Positions 32,924-63,105 of a stretch of 64,000 bases of DNA are shown one piece after another. A program made the position numbers and the translations under genes. A model generated the notes under the pieces. It was not told the DNA's origin. It saw only the letters and a list, made by a program, of their open reading frames with translations, and did not search any database. This DNA comes from a virus (Duplodnaviria > Caudoviricetes): positions 96,001-160,000 of IMG/VR virus record IMGVR_UViG_3300020576_006124, one strand, 5' to 3'. The stretch's first letter is position 1, and each line of letters begins with the position of its first letter.

Positions 32924-33997
32924 CTAGACGGTGATTAATCTAGTTTTATTGTGATCTACTAGACCTGTTGGACCTTTTTCTAATATCACAAAACCTTTCG
33001 TTGTTCTAAACATGGTTCCCTGCTCTAATTGATAGGGCATAGTTTGGCATAGGCAGCCTGTTAGGAGTAATTGCACACCATTAAGGTAGGTGCAGCTTAA
33101 TCTATGAGTATGGGCTTGAGCTACAACTCTAACCTTTTCTTTAACCCCAAGAACATCTTTAAACCCTTCAACAAATTTAAGAACGTCTTCTGCCGCACCT
33201 GCCCCAGCAAATTTCTCATGGTGAGATACTACTAGATCTTTCTCAATATGAATCGTGTTTAGAAATTCTTGGTGAGATGGTAGATTACTAAAAGCTAATC
33301 CCTCAGAGGTGTGTCTAAGAACCTCAACATTTTTTAATCCGGCAGAAATGATCTCAAGAGGGTCAATAAGAAGGGGGAGTAGTTGGGGGTAGTTGCTGGC
33401 TAGAATCTTAGTTGGTCGAAGATCATGGTTTCCAGTCAGCATTTTTATGTTTTTAGCACAGGAACTAAGTTCTTCAAGGAAAGATCTAGTGAAGGCTAAT
33501 TCCTCTCTAACAGTTAGGTGGTCTACGTTTTTATTAAATCTGGATACTGAGTAAAAGTCTAATAAGTCCCCCGCCAGATAAACAGTTTCTGCGTATTTAG
33601 CCGCATCAAGGAAAGCTGCTACAGCATCTTTATCTGCCCATACAGAGTGCAAATCGCCTCCTACGAGGATAAACTCATCACTCTTATGTTTAGATGTCCC
33701 AGAGAAGTCCTTATACTCCCCAATTATTTTGGTGAGAGAGTCTCTGGCGTAGGTAATAGGACTGTTGTCCTTCGGGGCTTCTGATGGTAAGGATAAGTTT
33801 TTAACAAAATCCTTATATAAACCAAGAAGAAGATCTCTTGCCTCATACTCAGGGAGCTCCATCTCTTCAGCTAAAACAGAGTAAATATTGGCTACCCCAG
33901 TCTTAGCTTTCTTAGCTTCCCAGTACATATGTCCAATTGCCTGACTAATTCCGGCATCGGAACATTTCTTCAAAAACATTTCTCTAGTATTACTCAT
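32924..33997 (-). CDS. Calcineurin-like metallophosphoesterase
   Basis: All five motifs present: GDLH, GDLLD, GNHD, HH, AHTH. Confidence 0.88.
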   Translation of the reverse strand: MSNTREMFLKKCSDAGISQAIGHMYWEAKKAKTGVANIYSVLAEEMELPEYEARDLLLGLYKDFVKNLSLPSEAPKDNSPITYARDSLTKIIGEYKDFSGTSKHKSDEFILVGGDLHSVWADKDAVAAFLDAAKYAETVYLAGDLLDFYSVSRFNKNVDHLTVREELAFTRSFLEELSSCAKNIKMLTGNHDLRPTKILASNYPQLLPLLIDPLEIISAGLKNVEVLRHTSEGLAFSNLPSHQEFLNTIHIEKDLVVSHHEKFAGAGAAEDVLKFVEGFKDVLGVKEKVRVVAQAHTHRLSCTYLNGVQLLLTGCLCQTMPYQLEQGTMFRTTKGFVILEKGPTGLVDHNKTRLITV

Positions 33998-36900
33998 TAG
34001 AAATTAGGTCCTTTTATTTGCTCTAAAACTTTATCCCGATAATACTGAGCCACTTCTTCTTTGGTATCAAAATCCAAAGTCATCTCAGGCCTATCAGATG
34101 TTAATCGTTGTATCTCGTATGTTATATTAGGGGTGGATCTAAGAATAGCCTCAACACTGGACACTCCATTCTCCATGTAAGGAACTCTAAAATTATCCCC
34201 TAAAATCTGTTTGGCTTTATCTACAGTAGATCTTCCAGGTCTTCCCGCAAGCACATTTTCATTTGCCCTGACTAGGGTTTCTATCTGCTTATCTTCTACT
34301 AGAGCTGACCATCCCTCCCAGTCCTCTCCGGGTAGATCAAATTTTTTAGATGCATTTTCGATTCCTGTATTTTTGGGGGAGTCAAAGCCAAGATATGATG
34401 CTAGCACTCTTTTTTGTGGATCAGGCAGTAGGTCATAGAAATCTTCTTTCTCTGCCTTGTTAGCGTACAAAATAATTTCCTTTGCTATTTGTTGTTGCCT
34501 TCTAGGGAGAGATCTGATTGCATCATCTAAAGAATTTATTTCCTCATCATACCCAATCATTGTCTGAGAAATCTTCTTTTCTGCAAATTTCTTTAATTTT
34601 TGTAGAGATTCTATAGTGGCTGAGCTGGCCGACTTTTTAAGCTCTTCATCAACAGCGGAGTTGATTCTTGAGTACTTCACATATTTTATGGTATCAAGAT
34701 ACTCGTCCACCTCAGAATCCCTATAATAGGACTCTGGTAAAGGATTACCATCTAGACCATTAAGAAATGCTAGGCCCGCCACAATTGCCCCAGCCACTTT
34801 ACCTGCCTTGACCTTATCTTCAGATCGTCTAAGGAAGAAGCTTGTTGTGAGCATAGCCCCTAGAGCAGCCCCGACCATATCCCTATGAATGTAGCTTGTA
34901 ATTGTAGGATAAAGACCTGTTTTCAAAGGATGCATCCAATCGAACTTGTCTGTGCCATAAACTTCTCCCCTCTCAAATTGTTCTAGCGGGGATCTAGCCC
35001 TTAGAAGTTTATTATTTATAGGAGTGTCTAGATGTGAAAACTCTTCGAACCAACTAGTTCCATACATCATTTTATAGGCTAGAGGGGATTTGTCTTTTCT
35101 ATCATAGGAGGCATAATGGGATTTAACGATTTCTTGGTTGACGCCATTAATAATAGCAGGAATAACAGTTTCCCCTAGAATTCCTTCTTGGCCCTCAACT
35201 ATTTTAACTTGGACATTAGCTCCTACTGCTATTCCAAACGTCTCTAGAACCCTCTCGTAGCCCTCAGAATAGGCATCGTAGGAGAACTTTACCCCGGCCA
35301 ATCTAAATACTCCTCTATCTGTATAAATTTCTCCGTCTAATCCGATGTTTTCCACTCTAGCTGAGAAGCTGTCTGTACCAACATTTCTCCTTGGATACAG
35401 ATGATACATCTCCTCTTTATCCTCTGCATCTTCTCTTGCAAGCTGCACTCGCTTGAACCCTTGAGGTGTAAGACTCTGAGACATGGCTCTTCTTAGTTGT
35501 TCGGAGTACTTATAACTATTTGGGGCTACTCTAGCTAATATCTCTAGTTTAGAGACTTCATCGTAAGACTGATATCTGTTTCTGCCAGACAACTTCTGAT
35601 CTAAGGCAAGTGCTGGATGTGATCTTTCATAAGCCTCTCCAGGTAACTCTAATTCTCCTATAGGTCCCGATCTTGAATTATGGGTTGCGATACTAGGGGT
35701 GCAAAATGATGCGTCGTTTTCTACGCTAAACCCATAAACTTTTGTAACAGAAGGATCTAGCCCTATTTTTACCACTTTAACGTGCAGAAAATCTTTAGTT
35801 AAATAGTAGTTAGAGTAACGATAAGGTTTTGGTGGTTTAATGTTCGAGGCTCCAAGAATCTCGCGCATAAACCTATAGGCATGGGATGACCCAAGCTTTA
35901 TTGTGTAAGACCTACTGGACCTTATCTGTTTTTGCCCTATCTGAGACACCCTTGGAGAATTGGTAATAATGCTAGAAACATACCCCCGCAGAAGTAACAG
36001 CTCCCATATTTGGTATGATAGATTTCGATTGCAGGTTTTGGCGGATACTACATATCGGCCTTTTGAGATAAAACTGCAACCATCTCCTAAAAAGTAGCCC
36101 TCTAACAAAGCGTCTATACAAGAGTTTTTAAGATTAAAAAAGATGTCTGAGAGCTTTTTATGGTGAGATATTTTACCCACTAAAGATTCGAATAGTCTCT
36201 GTACTGGTAGGGAATATAAATGTAAGCTTGCCCCCTCTGTGTTTCCTAGCCTTTTCCATGATGAAGATGTCTTTGGGAATTTATTTTTTATTATCTTTAT
36301 AATTTTCTCTGCGTAATTACTTTCTGAAATATTCATCGAAAGATCCACTTGGGCATTTTGGAAGGTACCTTCAGCTAAAACCCAACCTAGAACATAACAA
36401 AGATCTTCATCTACCTCCACAAACCTGTTTTGACTGTGGAGCTCGCATCTTCTTTTCGCCGCTTTTATCTCACTGTTCCTAGCACTATTATTAGACTTTT
36501 TGTACCAAGAAGTGTCTCTGCCCTCAATAACATCTCCTAATAACCTCTTGTAATCATCGCTAGGTTTTGTAGCAGAAGATGGGATATAAATATTATCGTT
36601 AAAGTAGTCGCAGGAAACGTAGTTTAGGAGGTCAATAATCACTGCTTGTTGGGTTGATTTTTTCCTAGGGTAGGCTAGAGTATCTCCAATTTTGATATCT
36701 TTCACCTCGGTCCAGACATAATCCCCATCTTTATACTGGTATAAAGGATGGCCCGGGCTAGCGGTAAGAGGGAACGAGGGCATTCCAAATACGGTTATCT
36801 TTTTTGCTACTTCCATTTTCTCCAGGCTTCTTAAGAAAATGGAGAATACTTTCTCAAAATTACCTTGATGAGTCAAAACTTTTTCCCCAACCTCAATATT

Positions 36901-39900
36901 CTCAGCCTTCTTCAAGCCCTCCCTGGTAATCAGTAAAGTTTCTGGTGAGACACAGTAGGGGTCTCCCTTGAGCATATCATCCGGCAACCATTCGGGCATT
37001 GTATTTGGTAGTGGGTTTATAGCATCAGTAGCTTGTATATCCCCAGATACAAATCTTCTAGTGAATTCACCAACAGGGCCTGTTAGCTCTCCGTATCTTC
37101 CTAGGAACATCATACGGCCTATTCCTGTGGCGAAGTCTGGGTCTTGAACTTGTAAATCTATTTTATCAGGTTGAAAAGCAAAATTATATCTTAGAAACGC
37201 ACCATAAAATCCAGAGACAGCCCTATACCTTCTGGTTAGATCTGTGATACTTGGGATCTCTGATGGTCCTTGAAGAATTTGATCCATGGATCCGCTGTGA
37301 CCGCCCCCTTCCCCTAATATTAGTCCGTGTCCTTGAGAACCACTTCCCCCACCAGAACCCCCCGTCCCATACCCATTTTCTGCCCCAGATCCTTCTTCCC
37401 CCCCACCTCTTGGGGATGATTTAGAAAGTTTGTAGGGTCGATCTTGTACCTTGTCAACCCAATCAATAAAGGGGTTAAAAGCCAGGACGTTTGAGGCGTT
37501 AGTCCAATTACTTCTCCATCTATTATAAAAATTTGGTCTAAATCCCTCAATAGAGGATCCCGAGACTGGGGATCTATTCCCTAATATCCAAAGTCTATTG
37601 GTTCTAATAGGATCTTCTCCAAAAGCTAGATAGTCCTGTTGTTCCTCAAAACTTCGTGGGGTAAAATATTGATCTAGACCTGGTACAGCGTCTACTATTC
37701 TCTTAGATATGTCATTTAGACCTGTAACTTCTTGAATAAGGCTCTTACCCAGAGAAAGAGGCCCCAGAACTCCTGCTGCAACCTCTGGAAGGGAGGGTAG
37801 GCCACTAGAGTCTAAAGAGTTGTTAAGTGCTCCCCAGGCATAGAATCCTGCCACTACTGGTAATACCCTTGTGAGCCCAAAGGCTGTCATTGTAGAGCCT
37901 ACAGAACCCAGAGAGGCATTATTAACCCCCAGGCCTACCTCACCAAGGACATTATTAGCAGAGCGGGCCATGACTGTAGCTCTGTAAGAGAATTCATTAA
38001 GGGCAGTAGAGGGAGATATAAGACCCTTTAATCCCTCAAACAAGTTAAACCCTGCAGCTATAGCGTAGTTTGGGATATCATCAAATTGGTTATCCCCCAG
38101 TATAAAAGGAGAAAAGCTCTTTCCTGTTACCTGAGATGTGACGCTGCTTCCAGTAGATCCAGCGAGGGTTGATAGGAATTTTAGAGATTGTCTCTCTAAG
38201 AAATCTTTTGATCCAGTTAAAGATGTTGCATCTTCCATCGCATTCTTAAAGATGGGTAAATCTAAAGCCGTTCCACCCAGAACTTCTTGAGGATCAAGGA
38301 AAGCGGTGGTGAATCTTCTAAACGAGGATACATTTAGTTCGGGAGTACCTGTTTTAACAGACCCGGGCCTCAACAAAGAAAAACTCATACTCATGATTTC
38401 TTCTGCTGTATTGACCCCTATTTTTTTATACTCTTCTACTAGGGCGTCCTCTAGCATAGGGTCCTCCAAATAAGAGGTACCTAAAGAAACGTGTTTAGAA
38501 GCTAGCTCTAATACCCTACTACGAGTTAGTTTAGAATTTTCTACGAACTGAGATTCTGATATATCTCTGATGATTTCTTTTTGGACTGCTTTCTCGGCCT
38601 CCAGGTGTAAGGCAGAATGAGATGGGTCTCCTATTAGTCCTTTTTTAATGCCAGTAATAGTGCCTGTAAAATCAGAGATCCCCCCAGAGTCCTGCTCGGA
38701 GACGCTCAGGTTGAGTTCGTGTGGGTGTGATTTAACTCTTTGAGCTACCCGATAAATATCTGTGGAGCCGGATTCCAATAAGAAATTCTCTAGAGTTTCC
38801 GCAGTACCTAAAGCCTTTTCTGGACTTTGTTCTATTGCGCTTAGAAGCTCTGTTGCGGCCTGAAGAGTGTCAGATCCCCCATTTAATTTAGAAGAGATAA
38901 AACTTTTAATAAGGGAGGAGTGGGACTTTGAGGTGTCCTGTGAAGAGTGAAGAATATGGAATAGAGCTTCGTTCAAATGTTGTGGATCTATCTTCTTGAT
39001 TTCTTCTGGGTTGTTCAAGATAAAGTTTAACAACTGTTTAGGGTTAATAGCTTTGTAATCATAGTCCCCCTGCTTCCTTAAGTAGTCAAAAACTAACGCT
39101 ACCTTATCATTTTTTGGCTGTAGTGTAAAGCCTGTGTTAGGATGATAACCTATCTCAAAAAACTTATCAGGGTGGTTTACAGCTGCTTCATATATCTTTG
39201 AAACTCTTCCCCTATCTCCCCCCTTAAAGAACTCTTTAAATGAGGTAAATATACTCTCCATACCTCTAGATTCCACTAGTGATCTTGCTTTTGTATTATG
39301 AGATAGGCCTATAACCCCTATGTTTGCCTCTTCTGTTAATGAAGCTCTCAGAGTTTTTGGGTTTAGCTCTAAGAGGGATTCCCCTACAGCTATACCATAA
39401 TTAGATCTTTCAAGATTTGGCATTATTCTAAGAAGATCAGCTTGTTTTGAGATTTTCCCCAGACCTCTCACTACTTTTGAGTCGCTAGAGTTAAAATTAA
39501 GTATGGTTAGTGGGACATTCATAACCCCAGGAAACAAGGGGACTTGTAGCCTATTAAGAGTTTTGAAAAGGGATTCCTTTCCTCTTTTTTCAAGCATAGA
39601 CATAGGAACGATACCATGCTTGGTTCTAACAAATCCAGTTTGGGCATTTAGGGCTCTTTCTTTCCTTTTTATTACCTCTCTTATCATTTCTGAGTCAGAA
39701 ATCTTTTTACCTTTTAAGGTTTTTTGAGTCATCTGGGCTATATGATCAGAAATAGACTTCTCATTTATATTTTGGTCTATGTCTGAGAAGAACCCCAGAT
39801 CTTTTAAGAATTTACTTCCGTCTGGGCTATCTAAAAGATCTTTCAGGGTGAGAGCCTCGGCGTCCTTCCCGAATAGTTTTTTTGCGTGAGCTACTACCCT

Positions 39901-40581
39901 TTCATTTTCTTTTGCTATGGTTTTTTCAAGAGCCCGATCTATATCTTTAAAATTAAGTCTTTGAGATACTGCATCCCTGTTAACAGAAAAGTGTCCTCTT
40001 TCTATCCCAGAGTGAAGACTATTCAATACATCAATAGGAGAGTTAAAACCTGACTTAAAATTATCCTTGCCTATAATAGTTATAAGCTTGTTAACCAAGT
40101 CAGATGTCACCGACTTTTTAGCTTCCGAAGGGGTATTAGCTCTTGTATATTCCCTAAAGATAGATGTAATCTGATTTTTAGAGGTAGCTGAATTAAGTGG
40201 ATTTGAGTCCGTCAACATGGACCCAACCATATTGAAAAGACGTTGCTCCCTTCCGGCATGATTGACTGAGGAAACTATCTGAGACAAAATATCAGACTCT
40301 CCATTTAGACTTAGACTCATGGAAGAGCTTCCACTGTGTATTAGTGTTTCTGCAAGACCAAGAGAGGTTAGTCCGCCATAAACCTTTTTTGGGTCAATTA
40401 ATCTAAGAGTTGAAGAAAGGAAGTCTTGAATGGGCTCTGCCAAGGCTGTGTCAGAAAAAGATAGACCAAGTTTTTTCTTAGCCCCATATGCAGCAATAGC
40501 AATTCCAGCAGCGTACTTGGAGTATTTGAAGATAGGGTTTTCCCCAACATCTTTAGCCTCTCTGTAGCTTCCCTTGAACAT
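33997..40581 (-). CDS. Tape-measure-like protein precursor containing an intein
   Basis: 2194 aa (about 1768 after splicing), helical with hydrophobic segments; directly follows the tube and chaperone genes. Confidence 0.65.
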   Translation of the reverse strand: MFKGSYREAKDVGENPIFKYSKYAAGIAIAAYGAKKKLGLSFSDTALAEPIQDFLSSTLRLIDPKKVYGGLTSLGLAETLIHSGSSSMSLSLNGESDILSQIVSSVNHAGREQRLFNMVGSMLTDSNPLNSATSKNQITSIFREYTRANTPSEAKKSVTSDLVNKLITIIGKDNFKSGFNSPIDVLNSLHSGIERGHFSVNRDAVSQRLNFKDIDRALEKTIAKENERVVAHAKKLFGKDAEALTLKDLLDSPDGSKFLKDLGFFSDIDQNINEKSISDHIAQMTQKTLKGKKISDSEMIREVIKRKERALNAQTGFVRTKHGIVPMSMLEKRGKESLFKTLNRLQVPLFPGVMNVPLTILNFNSSDSKVVRGLGKISKQADLLRIMPNLERSNYGIAVGESLLELNPKTLRASLTEEANIGVIGLSHNTKARSLVESRGMESIFTSFKEFFKGGDRGRVSKIYEAAVNHPDKFFEIGYHPNTGFTLQPKNDKVALVFDYLRKQGDYDYKAINPKQLLNFILNNPEEIKKIDPQHLNEALFHILHSSQDTSKSHSSLIKSFISSKLNGGSDTLQAATELLSAIEQSPEKALGTAETLENFLLESGSTDIYRVAQRVKSHPHELNLSVSEQDSGGISDFTGTITGIKKGLIGDPSHSALHLEAEKAVQKEIIRDISESQFVENSKLTRSRVLELASKHVSLGTSYLEDPMLEDALVEEYKKIGVNTAEEIMSMSFSLLRPGSVKTGTPELNVSSFRRFTTAFLDPQEVLGGTALDLPIFKNAMEDATSLTGSKDFLERQSLKFLSTLAGSTGSSVTSQVTGKSFSPFILGDNQFDDIPNYAIAAGFNLFEGLKGLISPSTALNEFSYRATVMARSANNVLGEVGLGVNNASLGSVGSTMTAFGLTRVLPVVAGFYAWGALNNSLDSSGLPSLPEVAAGVLGPLSLGKSLIQEVTGLNDISKRIVDAVPGLDQYFTPRSFEEQQDYLAFGEDPIRTNRLWILGNRSPVSGSSIEGFRPNFYNRWRSNWTNASNVLAFNPFIDWVDKVQDRPYKLSKSSPRGGGEEGSGAENGYGTGGSGGGSGSQGHGLILGEGGGHSGSMDQILQGPSEIPSITDLTRRYRAVSGFYGAFLRYNFAFQPDKIDLQVQDPDFATGIGRMMFLGRYGELTGPVGEFTRRFVSGDIQATDAINPLPNTMPEWLPDDMLKGDPYCVSPETLLITREGLKKAENIEVGEKVLTHQGNFEKVFSIFLRSLEKMEVAKKITVFGMPSFPLTASPGHPLYQYKDGDYVWTEVKDIKIGDTLAYPRKKSTQQAVIIDLLNYVSCDYFNDNIYIPSSATKPSDDYKRLLGDVIEGRDTSWYKKSNNSARNSEIKAAKRRCELHSQNRFVEVDEDLCYVLGWVLAEGTFQNAQVDLSMNISESNYAEKIIKIIKNKFPKTSSSWKRLGNTEGASLHLYSLPVQRLFESLVGKISHHKKLSDIFFNLKNSCIDALLEGYFLGDGCSFISKGRYVVSAKTCNRNLSYQIWELLLLRGYVSSIITNSPRVSQIGQKQIRSSRSYTIKLGSSHAYRFMREILGASNIKPPKPYRYSNYYLTKDFLHVKVVKIGLDPSVTKVYGFSVENDASFCTPSIATHNSRSGPIGELELPGEAYERSHPALALDQKLSGRNRYQSYDEVSKLEILARVAPNSYKYSEQLRRAMSQSLTPQGFKRVQLAREDAEDKEEMYHLYPRRNVGTDSFSARVENIGLDGEIYTDRGVFRLAGVKFSYDAYSEGYERVLETFGIAVGANVQVKIVEGQEGILGETVIPAIINGVNQEIVKSHYASYDRKDKSPLAYKMMYGTSWFEEFSHLDTPINNKLLRARSPLEQFERGEVYGTDKFDWMHPLKTGLYPTITSYIHRDMVGAALGAMLTTSFFLRRSEDKVKAGKVAGAIVAGLAFLNGLDGNPLPESYYRDSEVDEYLDTIKYVKYSRINSAVDEELKKSASSATIESLQKLKKFAEKKISQTMIGYDEEINSLDDAIRSLPRRQQQIAKEIILYANKAEKEDFYDLLPDPQKRVLASYLGFDSPKNTGIENASKKFDLPGEDWEGWSALVEDKQIETLVRANENVLAGRPGRSTVDKAKQILGDNFRVPYMENGVSSVEAILRSTPNITYEIQRLTSDRPEMTLDFDTKEEVAQYYRDKVLEQIKGPNF
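35677..36954 (-). mobile_element. Class 1 intein with LAGLIDADG homing endonuclease (426 aa, residues 1210-1635)
   Basis: GDPY|CVSPETLLIT (block A), TASPGHP (B), VLGWVLAEG (C), LLEGYFLGDG (E), IATHN|S (G). Confidence 0.95.
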
Positions 40582-57428: not shown

Positions 57429-58458
57429 CTAAAATATCCTTTGTAGAGTTTTTATTAAGGATAAGTGGAAGATTATACCTTCTAATCTCATTAAGCTGTT
57501 GGATCTCAGAATATCTCTCTAATAACGACCCCTCAACTTCTGAAAGAACGGACAAAAGACTTGCCTCCATCTGCATTGAAAGAGCTTGTAACCCAGAGTT
57601 TCTTAAGGCGTCATCAGACAAAATGGAAAGTGTTGTCATAGCTGATCTCAGATTCTTATCCAGGTATATCGCATAGTTATTCCTGCCTATCAAATCAGAC
57701 AATCTCTTATTCATGTCATAGTAAGGGAGAACAGCCACTGCAAGGTACTGATCTGTTATATGTTTAGTAGTATTTCTCCAAAGACCTAAGACAGACGAGA
57801 TGGAGGCGTATACATCTGTATCTTTCGACCCCTGCTCCACTAAGGACTGCTGTCTTACTAGATTTGAAAATATTCTTATTTCATCTTTGAGACTAATACC
57901 CCTCTTCTCTGAGAAGGAGCTAATGAAATCTTTCAATGAAAAATAATAGCTTTGGAAACTAGCTAGATAGTGTTTGGTGACTACCTCTAAAGAGTTCGGA
58001 TTTTTTTGGGTGTATCTAAGCCATTGATTCTCTAGGGAGTACTTTATAATCCTAATATTGGACTCCGATACGGTTAAATCCGCCAAGGCAATTACCCTAT
58101 AATCTCCTTCCGAAGCGGCTTTGGCGATCAAATCTTGTAGGGTTGAGTAGGAGATTGGATTGTACTTTTCTGGATGATAGGGATCAAAAGATAGATTCGA
58201 AAATTTATCTACTATCTCACCAGAAATAGTGCCAGTAAAGGAGTTTTTTGTATCAGTTTTTTTTTCTTGAATAAGATCAAGCAAAAGTTGAGACTCCCCG
58301 ATCAAAGTTTCTACCAGAATTTTACTAGAGACTTGGGAATTTGTCTGGGATGAATAGACAAGAGAGTTAGAAATATCTTTCGTTAAAGTAAGGCTTTGAT
58401 CAATAATCTGGTCTACAACCCTTGGAATATCTGGTTTTTGGAATAGGCTTTTACTCAT
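57400..58458 (-). CDS. Hypothetical helical protein
   Basis: 352 aa; coupled to terL by TAATG. Confidence 0.5.
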   Translation of the reverse strand: MSKSLFQKPDIPRVVDQIIDQSLTLTKDISNSLVYSSQTNSQVSSKILVETLIGESQLLLDLIQEKKTDTKNSFTGTISGEIVDKFSNLSFDPYHPEKYNPISYSTLQDLIAKAASEGDYRVIALADLTVSESNIRIIKYSLENQWLRYTQKNPNSLEVVTKHYLASFQSYYFSLKDFISSFSEKRGISLKDEIRIFSNLVRQQSLVEQGSKDTDVYASISSVLGLWRNTTKHITDQYLAVAVLPYYDMNKRLSDLIGRNNYAIYLDKNLRSAMTTLSILSDDALRNSGLQALSMQMEASLLSVLSEVEGSLLERYSEIQQLNEIRRYNLPLILNKNSTKDILDEISRYVQI

Positions 58459-61400
58459 TAGAAGTCCGGTAAAAATTTCTCAAATTGATATAAGTCTGAG
58501 CTAGTATAAGGGTCTACTTGTAAAATGTCTTTGGATGTGATTACCTGGGTCTCATAAGGTCCTATCTCTGTTTGGCCCAACCCTACATCAGAAAGAAAGT
58601 CCCCAATCTTCTTCCAAGAAGTATAGAGAGCAAAGAAAAGACAGTCTATCATATGTTCATCTTTTCTGCTAAACTTAATAGTAGAGGTGGAAGTATTTAG
58701 AATTTTGTATTTATAATACTGCTCCTTCATCTCTAGATCATTAGCGTTTAAGATAACTTCATCGTTCTCAAACTTCATTCTAGCTAACTGATAGGCAAAC
58801 TCTTTAATTCTCTTCTTCTCCACCTCTCCAGTTTCCTCATTTATCACCTCTTCTTTTCCTTGCATTGCTATCCTAACAAGGACATCTGAGAGATCAATCC
58901 CTTTCTCTAAACCTAATCTAAGAATGATCTCAGCATTAGCATCAATTCCGGATGAGTCAACGGCCACATGGGAAACTTTGTACCTCTGGTAGAAATCTAT
59001 TATATGCTCTGCAGCATCATGGAACCCCATAACGTCCTTTTTCATGGACTCATATCTGTCTAGGCACTTAATTTTTCTGGTTGTAGGATTATACCCCCAC
59101 ACAACCACATTAGACCCTGCCTGAACTTTATCAAAGTCAACTGTAATGAGGTTTATGCAACTAGTATCTAGGTTATGTTCACCATATTGGTAGTCATGTC
59201 TAAAGGCCTGGTCTATGTGAGGGCGATAGAATGCGTCCGTACTACCTGTCTGACGAATGTCTAGAACATATTCTGTCCTCCAACGATCCATGTCTGATTT
59301 CTCAGCCTCAAACATGGCGTTCTTTTGTTCAAGGGTTAGAGATGTATTATCCCAAATTCCGCATTTAACCAATCTTGAACTGGGGGGAAGATTTTTAAGA
59401 CAAACTCTGTTATAGAATTCCCCTTCAGGGTCCTTTACCGTCCCCGCTATGTAGCCTTTAATCCTACTAAGGTGCTCTGGTGGGCAGGCAAAGTACATAG
59501 GGTTAAGCACAGAGAACCCCTCACTAGGAATTGCCCCCGCCTCATCAATTATGATAATATCGGGCTGTTTGACGCCCCTGAGCGTGTCTATCTGCTTTTT
59601 ATTAGCAGAGACAATATGTCCTAAGATTTGAGATCCCTGTAAGAAGGTTCTTATGGGGGGAGAGTTTAATTGGACGCCATAAGGATCTACGAAAGCCTGA
59701 ACAAAAGGTGAACCTTCTATTAGAGTATCGAGGTCTGTAAAGAAAGCGTTTCTATTGGGGTCAGATTGACAGAAAAACTGGATGGTTCTTCCTGGGTCGA
59801 ATATAAGATGCCACAAAGCGATAGCTGCCAGCCCGAAAGAGTTGTGGACTACGATGTCATTTGCTATAAAGTTGTGGTCGTCGTGGTCTACTGTCAGGTC
59901 ATAAACCTTCTTTATACCCACATTTTGAACCTGAATTATAGAGAGCCATTTGCGGGCAGAATGTACGTCTTTTACTAATGGAATTAAACCCGCCTGATGA
60001 AGAAAAAGATCAGTGCTAGTGGGGTCTTGAATTATAATTTCACTAGCGGGACCCTTAAATGACCAAATACCTAATCTTAAAAGCAAATGGGCAAAGTCAT
60101 TCGAGGAAGCTTTTGGTACATTGAATTCAATCTGTCGGAAAAGGTCATTAAATTTTCCGTACTTTTTAAAAACTGACAAGACAAAGTTCATCAAAAACTC
60201 GTCAGCTAGTTTAAAAACTGGGTCTGGGATTATTCCTGTAGAAGTCATTTCTGTAACCCAGGAATCTATTTCACCCCCCGTAGAAGACCCCTTAAAGCCT
60301 GTGTTGATCTTCCCTGGGGCCAGAACTCTATCCCCTATTTGAAGGTGACCCGCTTGTATCCATCCATGAGATCTGCTGAAGACCTGATGATCCCTGCTCA
60401 ATGTTATGTCAAATCCATTATCAAAGATAAGCTTGATACAATGCTTCTCCCCCGATTCAACCCACTCTGTGGGGGAGGAGAGGGTTTTATTTAAGGAGAA
60501 ATCAAAAACTAGAGTTTTTTTAGTTTTACTCAAGTCTTTAATTGGTGTAGGCCTCCCTGTGAAGGAGTCTATAACTCGACTACTGCCATCAATACAATTG
60601 TGGGTTGTGATGTAGTAATCTGTGAGATAGAGTTGGTCCTTAGAGTCAAGGGTGATGCACTGACATGTAGCATACTCTTCATCCATCTCCACATTAATTA
60701 CTTTTCTCCTGAGGTCCTTTTGGAGACTACCCTCCCAGCTCTCTGAGAACTTGTCACTAAATAAAAGTCCAAGCTCAACTGGTAAATAGATCTCCATCAA
60801 AGATTGTCTATTTATCGTCTTTAAATGGGCTACACCTCCAAGACCAAAAACAAGTTGCTGTACATGTCTGGCAAAGGATTCTGATGGGGCTCTGTACTCG
60901 TAGTATTTATTTGTGGGGTGGAAATAACTTTCCGTTAGTACTTTTTCAAGATAACGGGCTCTGAGTTTTGAGCTGCCGTAGATAACTTCGTTGGGGATAT
61001 CCCTTGAGGCAGGAGTAATTGGCTCTTCCAAATAATGAAGGGATGATGATAAAGAGTTATTTATCTTTGACGAAGTAAATTTCATCAAAGAGCAAGCCTT
61101 AATAAATACTTCTTTACCAGAGTCTACCAGCTTAGATAGTGCTAGTGTGTCTACCATCCACTCCTTTCCACCAGAGATAACAACCCAGAGATGGTCTTCT
61201 GTGGCCCTAGTATAGGTCCCGTCTTCCATAAAAACAGTCATCACAGGGACATAGCCGTAAGGGTGAATGTCTTTAATTGTGGCAGAATCACCAGAAGGGG
61301 TTAGAACTTTATCCCCAACAGACAAATCTCCCATTCTTCGGAAACCTAAGGGGGTTAGTACCCTGGCTGATTGAGGTTGAGCTTTACCACCCCTTCTATG

Positions 61401-61607
61401 GACCCAGATGTATATGTACTTCTCAGGAGCGTCCATAAATTCAGCCTGGAAACCTCTAGGATTGAAAGGAGTCCAATCCATCCCGTCTTTCACTCGCAGG
61501 AAGTTTCTAGCAAAGGCGGCCTTTGATAGTCGGGCTTCATCAATTTTGGCTTTGAACCCTGGGTTGGTTTTTGCTTGATTTAAGATTTCTTCTAGTAGTT
61601 TCGACAT
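58458..61607 (-). CDS. terL: Terminase large subunit precursor with two tandem inteins (about 535 aa spliced)
   Basis: Q-motif PRGFQ, Walker A HRRGGK|S (interrupted), Walker B IIIIDEAG, coupling AGT, nuclease VDFD and DEHMID. Confidence 0.93.
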   Translation of the reverse strand: MSKLLEEILNQAKTNPGFKAKIDEARLSKAAFARNFLRVKDGMDWTPFNPRGFQAEFMDAPEKYIYIWVHRRGGKAQPQSARVLTPLGFRRMGDLSVGDKVLTPSGDSATIKDIHPYGYVPVMTVFMEDGTYTRATEDHLWVVISGGKEWMVDTLALSKLVDSGKEVFIKACSLMKFTSSKINNSLSSSLHYLEEPITPASRDIPNEVIYGSSKLRARYLEKVLTESYFHPTNKYYEYRAPSESFARHVQQLVFGLGGVAHLKTINRQSLMEIYLPVELGLLFSDKFSESWEGSLQKDLRRKVINVEMDEEYATCQCITLDSKDQLYLTDYYITTHNCIDGSSRVIDSFTGRPTPIKDLSKTKKTLVFDFSLNKTLSSPTEWVESGEKHCIKLIFDNGFDITLSRDHQVFSRSHGWIQAGHLQIGDRVLAPGKINTGFKGSSTGGEIDSWVTEMTSTGIIPDPVFKLADEFLMNFVLSVFKKYGKFNDLFRQIEFNVPKASSNDFAHLLLRLGIWSFKGPASEIIIQDPTSTDLFLHQAGLIPLVKDVHSARKWLSIIQVQNVGIKKVYDLTVDHDDHNFIANDIVVHNSFGLAAIALWHLIFDPGRTIQFFCQSDPNRNAFFTDLDTLIEGSPFVQAFVDPYGVQLNSPPIRTFLQGSQILGHIVSANKKQIDTLRGVKQPDIIIIDEAGAIPSEGFSVLNPMYFACPPEHLSRIKGYIAGTVKDPEGEFYNRVCLKNLPPSSRLVKCGIWDNTSLTLEQKNAMFEAEKSDMDRWRTEYVLDIRQTGSTDAFYRPHIDQAFRHDYQYGEHNLDTSCINLITVDFDKVQAGSNVVVWGYNPTTRKIKCLDRYESMKKDVMGFHDAAEHIIDFYQRYKVSHVAVDSSGIDANAEIILRLGLEKGIDLSDVLVRIAMQGKEEVINEETGEVEKKRIKEFAYQLARMKFENDEVILNANDLEMKEQYYKYKILNTSTSTIKFSRKDEHMIDCLFFALYTSWKKIGDFLSDVGLGQTEIGPYETQVITSKDILQVDPYTSSDLYQFEKFLPDF
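59841..60596 (-). mobile_element. TerL intein 2: class 1, 252 aa (residues 338-589), degenerate endonuclease
   Basis: CIDGSSRV, TLSRDHQVF, VYDLTVD..HNFIANDIVVHN|S. Confidence 0.95.
60597..61382 (-). mobile_element. TerL intein 1: Ala-start class 3 (WCT), 262 aa (residues 76-337), degenerate endonuclease
   Basis: AQPQSARVLTP, ATEDHLW (Trp B12), CQCITL (Cys F4), ITTHN (Thr G5). Confidence 0.92.
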
Positions 61608-61693: not shown

Positions 61694-62107
61694 TTATCTA
61701 TTGGTGTATCTTGCAGCATATGCCGCTGCTTCTTGCCTAAAGATTGCAGCACTCTGAAACCTTGTTGAGGCATAGTTAAGACTGCTCATTGCAACGTCCA
61801 TTGGTGCTCTAGAGAGGGAGTATGGGGAACCTTTTATATTATACTTTATATCATTATAGGTTCTGTACCCTGAAACTGTTCCGTGAAGTGCTGCTCCAGC
61901 TAAAGCTGTTCCCGTTATTCCTACGAATTGTGCTGTGGGGGATAGGCCAGAAACGGCCCAAGCAGACCCAAGCCCTAAAGCTGCCCCCCTTAATCTATGA
62001 TCCGGGCTGGTCATAAAACCAATGGCAGCACTAGTTGCTGCTGTGGTGGTAAACCATTTTCTATTTGTAGACGCAAAGGCCTTTAGAAAATCAAAGGTGG
62101 CAGACAT
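61694..62107 (-). CDS. Small Gly/Ala-rich membrane-type protein
   Basis: 137 aa; hydrophobic helices with GxxxG. Confidence 0.55.
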   Translation of the reverse strand: MSATFDFLKAFASTNRKWFTTTAATSAAIGFMTSPDHRLRGAALGLGSAWAVSGLSPTAQFVGITGTALAGAALHGTVSGYRTYNDIKYNIKGSPYSLSRAPMDVAMSSLNYASTRFQSAAIFRQEAAAYAARYTNR

Positions 62108-62424
62108 TATTTAAAGAAATTTCTTCCGGAGATCTTACTGAAGCCTCTTAATCCTGCACCTTTAAAAAAGCTGCTCCCATTTCCCCTAAAGGAGTGGAAG
62201 GAAGCCATTCCGAGGCCAATACCTGCTGCTCCGTAAAGACCAGCAGTAATAGGAGCCCTACGCCGAGCTGACTTCCTAGACATACCGAGGGAATACATTC
62301 CGGCTAACCCCATTCCAGCAGCCCCCCATCTTTGTTGTGCGGGAGTTAATTTTTTATAAAATCTTCCTACTTTATTACCAGCATAAAGGAGGTTTTTAAA
62401 CATAGAACTCGATCTAATAGCCAT
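62107..62424 (-). CDS. Small basic Gly-rich membrane-type protein
   Basis: 105 aa; two hydrophobic segments; no acidic residues. Confidence 0.55.
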   Translation of the reverse strand: MAIRSSSMFKNLLYAGNKVGRFYKKLTPAQQRWGAAGMGLAGMYSLGMSRKSARRRAPITAGLYGAAGIGLGMASFHSFRGNGSSFFKGAGLRGFSKISGRNFFK

Positions 62425-62427
62425 TTC

Positions 62428-63105
62428 TTATCTCCTTAGTGAATTTCCTAGGTTTTGAGCTGATGTAATCTCTCTCATCAAATTATCATAAGTGGTTGTA
62501 GGGTCTGGGGCACGATTGTTATTTAACACCATATTCCCAAACTCTTTGGCTGGACCAAAAACAGCCTTTCCTATTGACAGGCCTACAGCTAATCCTGCAT
62601 GCGGGGCATAACGTCTTATATCATTTTTGGGGAGATTTTTATAGGGGAATAATCTCATTCCCATAACTCTAAAGTTTTTCTTCTGAAGGTTGTCTATGCC
62701 TTCCATTCCGTACTTTAGCTCTTCTTGTATAACTTTTCCTGCGGGAGTTCTATAGAATTTCCCTAATAATTCATTTTTTGACTCTGTAATTCCGTGGAAG
62801 AACCCAGTACCTGAATCCCCAGTCCCCATAAAAGCTCTACTCCATTTTCTCATGGATTTAGCTCCTAAGCTGAAACCTATTCCTGCGCCTAAAGCAGCCC
62901 CTACAGCTCCGGCCCCAGGACCAAAAGTAGAACCCATCCATAGACCCACCCCTGCACCCAGAAGAGGGCCCACTCCATAGCCAAGAGTCCCAGCTACTAG
63001 GTGTGATCCACCCTCTACGCCTTTGGTAAAAAATCCTAAGCCGGGAGTTCCGACGTGTCCGACACCTGCTTTAAAAATATTGAATGAACTCTTATTAAAT
63101 CTCAT
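62428..63105 (-). CDS. Glycine-zipper membrane-type protein
   Basis: GTLGYGVGPLLGAGVGLWMGSTFGPGAGAVGAALGAGIG. Confidence 0.6.
   Translation of the reverse strand: MRFNKSSFNIFKAGVGHVGTPGLGFFTKGVEGGSHLVAGTLGYGVGPLLGAGVGLWMGSTFGPGAGAVGAALGAGIGFSLGAKSMRKWSRAFMGTGDSGTGFFHGITESKNELLGKFYRTPAGKVIQEELKYGMEGIDNLQKKNFRVMGMRLFPYKNLPKNDIRRYAPHAGLAVGLSIGKAVFGPAKEFGNMVLNNNRAPDPTTTYDNLMREITSAQNLGNSLRR

Follow-up and report, generated by a model that had tools for sequence, protein, structure and literature searches.

A phage large terminase gene holding two abutting, predicted splicing-competent inteins that share a junction residue

The large terminase (TerL) gene of a large, uncultured phage, in a 64,000-nt window of the record IMGVR_UViG_3300020576_006124 contains two inteins that follow one another directly. 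The window is the whole stretch of DNA that was analysed, and all positions below refer to it unless another source is named; the full record is 197 kb long, metagenome-derived and about 85% complete. The TerL precursor is encoded by a single unbroken open reading frame (ORF) on the minus strand (58458..61607), 1049 amino acids (aa) plus stop. Read from its N-terminus, and with every part on the minus strand, the precursor begins with an N-extein of aa 1-75 (61383..61607) whose last five residues are the Walker A sequence RRGGK (aa 71-75; 61383-61397), as placed by translation and alignment. Intein 1 follows (aa 76-337, 262 aa; 60597..61382), of class-3 type with a truncated LAGLIDADG relic and delimited by a 16-member alignment, and then intein 2 (aa 338-589, 252 aa; 59841..60596), of class 1 with a relic single LAGLIDADG-like domain and delimited by Pfam PF14890 and a 39-member alignment. 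The C-extein (aa 590-1049; 58461..59840), placed by translation, alignment and a profile match, starts with Ser590 and contains the Walker B pair Asp688-Glu689. The boundary between the inteins falls between 60597 and 60596, with zero extein residues between them. Removing both inteins reconstitutes the P-loop RRGGK-S, with a predicted junction RRGGK-SFG, and the exteins of 75 aa (N) and 460 aa (C) give a predicted spliced TerL of 535 aa. Ser590 is the final +1 nucleophile as well as the P-loop Ser.

The Walker A and B motifs, the homology to known TerL proteins and the location in a packaging and morphogenesis module identify the host protein as the large terminase. The precursor matches phrog_2, terminase large subunit, with E = 2e-11. 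A profile built from 18 intein-less relatives, whose Walker A consensus is RRxGK-S, matches T4 gp17 (E = 6e-15) and also herpes simplex virus (HSV) and thermophilic phage terminases. The same profile matches the genome in two abutting pieces, profile 7-70 and 70-482, which are separated by about 1.54 kb of DNA, and a profile search of the genome found this TerL locus to be the only one in the 197-kb IMG/VR record. The portal gene lies two genes downstream of terL, and the major head and tail sheath genes are also downstream. Directly upstream of terL, three small Gly/Ala-rich ORFs (137, 105 and 225 aa; window 61694-63105, minus strand) occupy a place in which one might look for a small terminase; their sole match is a weak one, to a tape-measure-like PHROG.

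Intein 1 has the sequence features that define class 3, a group recognized by the lack of an N-terminal nucleophile together with a WCT triplet, and described as splicing by a two-branch mechanism with the block F Cys as its starting point (Tori et al. 2010, PMC2807308). The key residues are Ala76, His139, Trp141, Cys317 (block F position 4) and Thr335-His336-Asn337. Across the 16 aligned relatives, the first residue is always A, E or M and never Cys, Ser or Thr; H-x-W in block B, the block F Cys and the THN end are common to 16/16 members, and the WCT triplet (Trp141, Cys317 and Thr335) is invariant in all of them. Cys317 (codon 60657..60659, minus strand), likewise invariant in 16/16, is the predicted initiating nucleophile. 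Its neighbour Cys315 is not conserved and is absent from P0151, the closest relative of the window protein. Intein 1 gives full-length tblastn matches to P-loop inteins that many jumbo phages carry in their helicases and terminases, with E down to 2e-18, and a phmmer match to gp41-1 and the class 3 Msm DnaB intein of structure 6BS8 (E = 5e-4), whose class and WCT residues are taken from PMC6195587. Foldseek pairs the modelled intein 1 with 6bs8 (E = 5e-4) and returned only inteins. The Pfam Hint_2 score of intein 1, 13.7 bits, is below the threshold of 28.4. The +1 residue of intein 1 is Cys338 in the precursor and would be Ser590 once intein 2 is excised; in single-intein alleles it is S or T.

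Intein 2 is, by its motifs, a class 1 intein. The key residues are Cys338, Ser404-x-x-His407 (block B), Asp570 (block F position 4), His588-Asn589 and the +1 residue Ser590. Pfam PF14890 (Intein_splicing) scores 47.2 bits on the intein alone and 51.9 bits on the whole protein against a cut-off of 35.8, and a PDB sequence search matched the solved Ssp DnaB and Mtu RecA inteins. The class-1 features are conserved in the 39 family members, whose length stays at about 252 aa, and do not vary in the 11 aligned alleles that carry both inteins. The position preceding intein 2 (-1) varies among relatives, where K, N, F, A, V, I and Y all occur. Weak DARPin/ankyrin matches to intein 2 were set aside as spurious.

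The two inteins meet at Asn337/Cys338 (60594..60599, minus strand), as read from the translation and the THN/C pattern, the slash marking the junction. Cys338 thus has a double role, as the +1 nucleophile that serves intein 1 and as the first residue of intein 2, and the Asn337-Cys338 bond is both the C-terminal scissile bond of intein 1 and the N-terminal scissile bond of intein 2. An earlier note on this DNA had proposed two directly joined inteins that belong to different classes, a Cys338 serving both as +1 and as Cys1, and a W(B12), C(F4) and T(G5) signature in intein 1. The residues and coordinates it gave are all correct by translation and motif mapping, on the minus strand; the two classes, as defined by sequence, and the missing extein are borne out by translation, alignments and Pfam, the shared Cys338 follows from the translation, and the WCT assignment holds as well, the three residues being Trp141, Cys317 and Thr335. 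On this evidence, the classic P-loop site (GK/S) of the sole large terminase holds two separate inteins that are predicted to be splicing-competent, and the double-intein residue pattern far exceeds chance expectation. An AlphaFold model of the double insert (mean predicted local distance difference test score, pLDDT, 78.7; predicted template modelling score, pTM, 0.54) consists of two beta-rich HINT halves with helical inserts. pLDDT is >90 over most of intein 2 and 80-91 in the beta-rich halves of intein 1, and the deleted-endonuclease linker of intein 1 is of low confidence.

An exhaustive HMMER search with the C-extein returned 187 relatives, which were dissected with four pieces of the window protein. 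Four allele types occur among them: intein-less, intein 2 only at GK/S (17 clusters), intein 1 only (3) and tandem. The earlier note had named TerL homologues as the place to look for HN-C tandems and single-intein alleles, and both kinds were found. The THN/C tandem junction is present in at least 15 TerL clusters drawn from the jgi, ena and Logan sources, 13 of them complete (by pattern search) and 2 fragmentary. When all 382 retrieved proteins were scanned for the pattern, no tandem turned up outside the family of the window TerL. The identical 1049-aa protein is encoded on 3 contigs, one of them from a Logan assembly of another run. P0151 is 48% identical to it, with 1050 aa, the identical layout and the same intein sizes. 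Between P0001 and P0151, identity is 40% in intein 1, 48% in intein 2, 60% in the N-extein and 51% in the C-extein, so the inteins are only slightly more diverged than the exteins.

These relatives bear on whether the junction is real. A metagenome contig of a record that is about 85% complete could in principle present a chimeric assembly of two alleles, or a non-functional relic of a gene. Against this, the same protein stands on 3 contigs from more than one assembly and the same junction recurs in 14 other clusters, which excludes the assembly chimera that the earlier note had listed as a refutation; moreover, the ORF is intact and is the sole TerL of the record, and the catalytic residues of the inteins and the Walker A and B motifs of TerL are conserved. 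We therefore regard an artefact or dead gene as extremely improbable.

Against 50,697 deposited phage genomes, tblastn with the C-extein gave no match, and tblastn with the double intein gave only intein-1-like matches over about half of the query and no tandem record; a search of viral contigs for related loci found no relative. When the tandem-alignment profile was used for a census, the class 3 inteins of PhoH, SNF2 and DnaB dominated the matches, and the count was not improved.

Several further layouts were seen among the relatives. P0004 and P0020 show another double arrangement, in which an intein of the intein-2 type sits eight residues upstream (with the Cys of C[IV]HRRAGK as +1) and one of the intein-1 type at GK/S or GK/T, leaving an 8-residue micro-extein between them. 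Five further clusters have the intein-2 type at this upstream site (C[IV]HRRAGK) without the intein-1 type. P0152 (1512 aa) contains three TerL inteins, the P-loop tandem and a third that ends HN/C directly before the Walker B DE. In P0005, an intein-2-only allele, Walker A reads RRAGN rather than RRAGK, which may be a sequencing error or mark an inactive copy.

The tandem alignment comprises 11 alleles with 27-48% identity to the window protein and 43% mean column identity. Invariant in all 11 are H139, W141, C317, T335, H336, N337, C338, H407, D570, H588, N589 and S590, and in the exteins R71, R72, G74 and K75 of Walker A and the Walker B DE. The invariance of the catalytic residues across these alleles suggests that both inteins are kept functional, and that Asn337, Cys338 and His407 are conserved speaks for use of the inner junction. 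The alternative would be that both domains leave as one 514-aa unit through the outer junctions, with Cys317 attacking Lys75-Ala76, the acyl group moving to Ser590 and Asn589 cyclising. The first and last residues of a HINT fold are adjacent, and from general intein structures Ser590 should sit near Cys338 and hence near the active site of intein 1, a point in favour of such a transfer. Yet excision as a block would render Asn337, Cys338 and His407 dispensable, and all three are invariant at this level of divergence; Asn337 and Cys338, in addition, are present in all 15 junctions seen. We consider this route very unlikely.

Neither window intein has the two motifs, each with a catalytic acidic residue, that a LAGLIDADG endonuclease requires, and both endonucleases are eroded in the window phage. 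Pfam LAGLIDADG_3 and Hom_end are both found in full-length relatives of intein 1, which are about 350 aa long; these copies retain the Asp residues of the two LAGLIDADG motifs, and their endonuclease is apparently intact. In the window copy, motif 1 is deleted and motif 2 is without its Asp and Gly; across the family, intein 1 ranges from 143 to 354 aa. The truncated size is the same in P0151, which argues that the decay of the intein 1 endonuclease is old. Intein 2 retains one LAGLIDADG-like helix, and no acidic residue is found at the motif position in any of its 39 members, which makes it a dead relic. Plus-strand ORFs in the inteins (69-73 aa) gave no Pfam match, so no antisense endonuclease was found there.

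The distribution of alleles speaks to how the tandem arose. In a maximum-likelihood tree of the C-extein, tandem and intein-2-only alleles are repeatedly sisters, and well-supported branches force at least 8 changes. A single origin of the tandem, modelled by constraining together 13 tandem alleles chosen after the tree was seen, was rejected by the approximately unbiased (AU) test with p = 2.6e-85. In sister pairs of tandem and single alleles, identity in intein 2 and in the C-extein is 66/66, 55/56, 48/54 and 45/51%, and several of the extein sister pairs reappear in the intein 2 tree; intein 2 thus seems to have been inherited largely with the host gene. Intein 1 shows a different pattern. 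Its full-length copies share a median of 51% identity (up to 60%) where the C-exteins share 37%, with no correlation between the two measures, and they are found at empty sites, at intein-2-occupied sites and at GK/S or GK/T eight residues after an upstream intein 2.

We read these data as follows. Intein 2, of class 1 and with a dead endonuclease domain, would be the older resident of the TerL lineage. Intein 1 would derive from the mobile class-3 P-loop inteins with LAGLIDADG endonucleases and have inserted itself after the Walker A Lys, directly before Cys1 of intein 2, with GK/C taken as just another P-loop site of the GK/S or GK/T kind; its endonuclease would then have decayed in the window phage, and both inserts would persist solely because TerL needs splicing to work. 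P-loop similarity has been proposed to let such inteins switch targets (Gosselin et al., bioRxiv 10.1101/2025.01.02.630785). A mobile class-3 intein has probably invaded an occupied site, and the simplest reading of the alleles is that such an intein repeatedly enters or leaves a site where a class 1 intein is fixed, and decays afterwards. The interleaving of tandem and single alleles and the mobile appearance of intein 1 also support what the earlier note had suggested, that one intein entered a site already held by the other.

As to the chemistry, established intein mechanisms predict that each intein would excise itself, with both reactions passing through Cys338. Two orders can be drawn. 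In one (Route B), intein 2 would splice first, from Cys338 to Ser590, moving the N-extein plus intein 1 onto Ser590; intein 1 would then stand in the ancestral class-3 context THN/S and splice through Cys317. In the other (Route A), intein 1 would go first and pass the N-extein from Cys317 to the Cys338 thiol; after cyclisation of Asn337, the resulting species would be the linear thioester of intein 2's own first step, and the N-extein would be handed on. Ser or Thr stands at +1 in almost every class 3 intein and is favourable to the transfer step, whereas Cys at +1 was recorded in 1/34 candidates (Tori et al., PMC2807308); Msm DnaB splices its class 1 intein ahead of its class 3 intein (PMC6195587). 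Because of this +1 preference and this order, and because the -1 position of intein 2 is tolerant, we lean slightly to Route B and give it about an even chance, with Route A somewhat less likely. The earlier note had held that splicing must be ordered or competitive. This is not supported: both routes would end in RRGGK-SFG and the 535-aa TerL, so we see no need for a fixed order, and competition on paper is confined to the transient use of the Cys338 thiol.

An obligatory sequence of events may nevertheless be proposed, along the lines of the two-step gate suggested in the earlier note: intein 1 must go first, the N-extein is placed on Cys338 as a thioester, and the redox state of Cys317 and Cys338 then controls the splicing of intein 2 and, with it, packaging. 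In favour of this, translation reaches intein 1 before intein 2, cyclisation of Asn337 would yield a species chemically identical to the first intermediate of intein 2 (as follows from the mechanisms in PMC2807308), and a disulfide at the block F Cys is known to switch off a class 3 P-loop intein (PMC6195587). However, intein 2 retains the block B His407 and stands alone in many single-intein alleles, where it would have to splice unaided; there is no conserved partner Cys, Cys315 being absent from P0151; and the frequent gain and loss of the tandem together with endonuclease decay fit selfish turnover better than a selected regulator. An obligate relay or gate is therefore unlikely in our view, and a redox gate on packaging is conceivable solely through its parallel with Msm DnaBi1. 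The same pattern of turnover and decay looks more like selfish elements than an adaptive switch. A further proposal, an "intein on an intein" in the sense that the class-3 endonuclease specifically invades class-1-occupied alleles by using Cys1 as its +1, and that a thioester relay performs the first step of intein 2, is one we hold to be doubtful. The explanation as a whole, namely two splicing inteins that arose by class-3 invasion of a class-1 site and each excise themselves through Cys338, we consider probable.

A number of observations weigh against this explanation. The splicing activity, order and intermediates of the family are all deduced from sequence, and the +1 residue of intein 1 is Cys until intein 2 leaves, a rare state among the class-3 candidates cited above. 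In the AlphaFold model, the last four residues of intein 1 (TTHN) have pLDDT <50 which, with the pTM of 0.54, means that the geometry of the shared junction is not fixed by the model. A global Mantel test relating intein 2 identity to that of the C-extein fell short of significance (r = 0.15, p = 0.12), and P0010 and P0022, a close pair by their exteins, do not group in the tree of intein 2; the case for co-divergence of intein 2 with its host gene thus draws on a small number of closely related pairs. For intein 1, the tree is poorly resolved, with long branches for decayed copies, and part of its higher conservation may stem from constraint instead of transfer. Finally, the invasion reading must account for a LAGLIDADG enzyme cutting alleles in which intein 2 has taken the place of the 3' half-site.

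Other inteins are present in the phage. Outside the window, the ribonucleotide reductase large subunit is split over two ORFs (G000:C1, about 75.2-78.0 kb; L005); the first ORF ends and the second begins with intein halves, with a 168-aa ORF between them, a "fractured gene" layout with a split intein. An intein is also contained in the 677-aa ribonucleotide reductase small subunit (G000:C1, about 80.0-82.1 kb; L006), likewise outside the window. Within the window, a weak Intein_splicing match (E = 0.004, about 36613-36765) falls in a 2194-aa giant structural ORF (33997-40581, minus strand).

Compared with characterized systems, the closest counterparts of intein 1 are the inteins of mycobacteriophage Bethlehem DnaB (PMC2807308), Msm DnaBi1 (6BS8, PMC6195587) and mycobacteriophage TerL1-a (PMC5050341). 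Like these class 3 P-loop inteins, intein 1 is inserted between the Walker A Lys and Ser/Thr, has a non-nucleophilic start, the WCT triplet and a THN end, and has full-length relatives with a LAGLIDADG endonuclease. Unlike them, it precedes Cys1 of another intein instead of an extein Ser/Thr, and the window copy is without most of its endonuclease. Intein 2, with its Cys1, [S/T]xxH motif, block F Asp and HN end, resembles the Ssp DnaB and Mtu RecA mini-inteins and TliVMA, which have a reduced or relic endonuclease, and its sequence and fold match structures of the Ssp DnaB/Mtu RecA type; it differs from all three in being preceded by another intein's catalytic Asn instead of an extein residue. 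Several inteins per ATPase gene are also found in Haloferax MCM (MCM-a/MCM-d; PMC10643990), Msm DnaB (i1/i2; PMC6195587) and mycobacteriophage TerL (TerL1-a/-b; PMC5050341), where neighbouring inteins affect each other's homing or differ in splicing rate. In those genes, the inteins are kept apart by extein residues and do not share their -1 and +1 positions, in contrast to the zero spacing and the shared residue and bond of the window TerL. The mycobacteriophage TerL1-a and -b sites are one residue apart, and their joint occupancy is not reported (PMC5050341). The earlier note had known of no characterized example; in agreement, we found no published natural zero-spacing tandem in the full-text literature (open-access papers and bioRxiv), which yielded only multi-intein genes and neighbours. 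The present analysis contributes the allele phylogeny, the resident-versus-invader reading and the relay argument.

Inteins are usually studied singly, each with its own flanking extein residues. The TerL family described here is an essential gene family in which one residue would act as acceptor for one intein and as initiator for the next, and in which one bond would be cleaved by both. It opens testable questions: can two HINT active sites have a residue in common, does a class 3 intein accept Cys at +1, can one intein pass a thioester to another, and how does a homing endonuclease get into an occupied site? Related phages supply ready-made controls, with empty sites, intein 1 only, intein 2 only, the tandem, and inteins eight residues apart. 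For protein engineers, the intein pair could serve as a scarless, two-step and possibly orthogonal splicing module.

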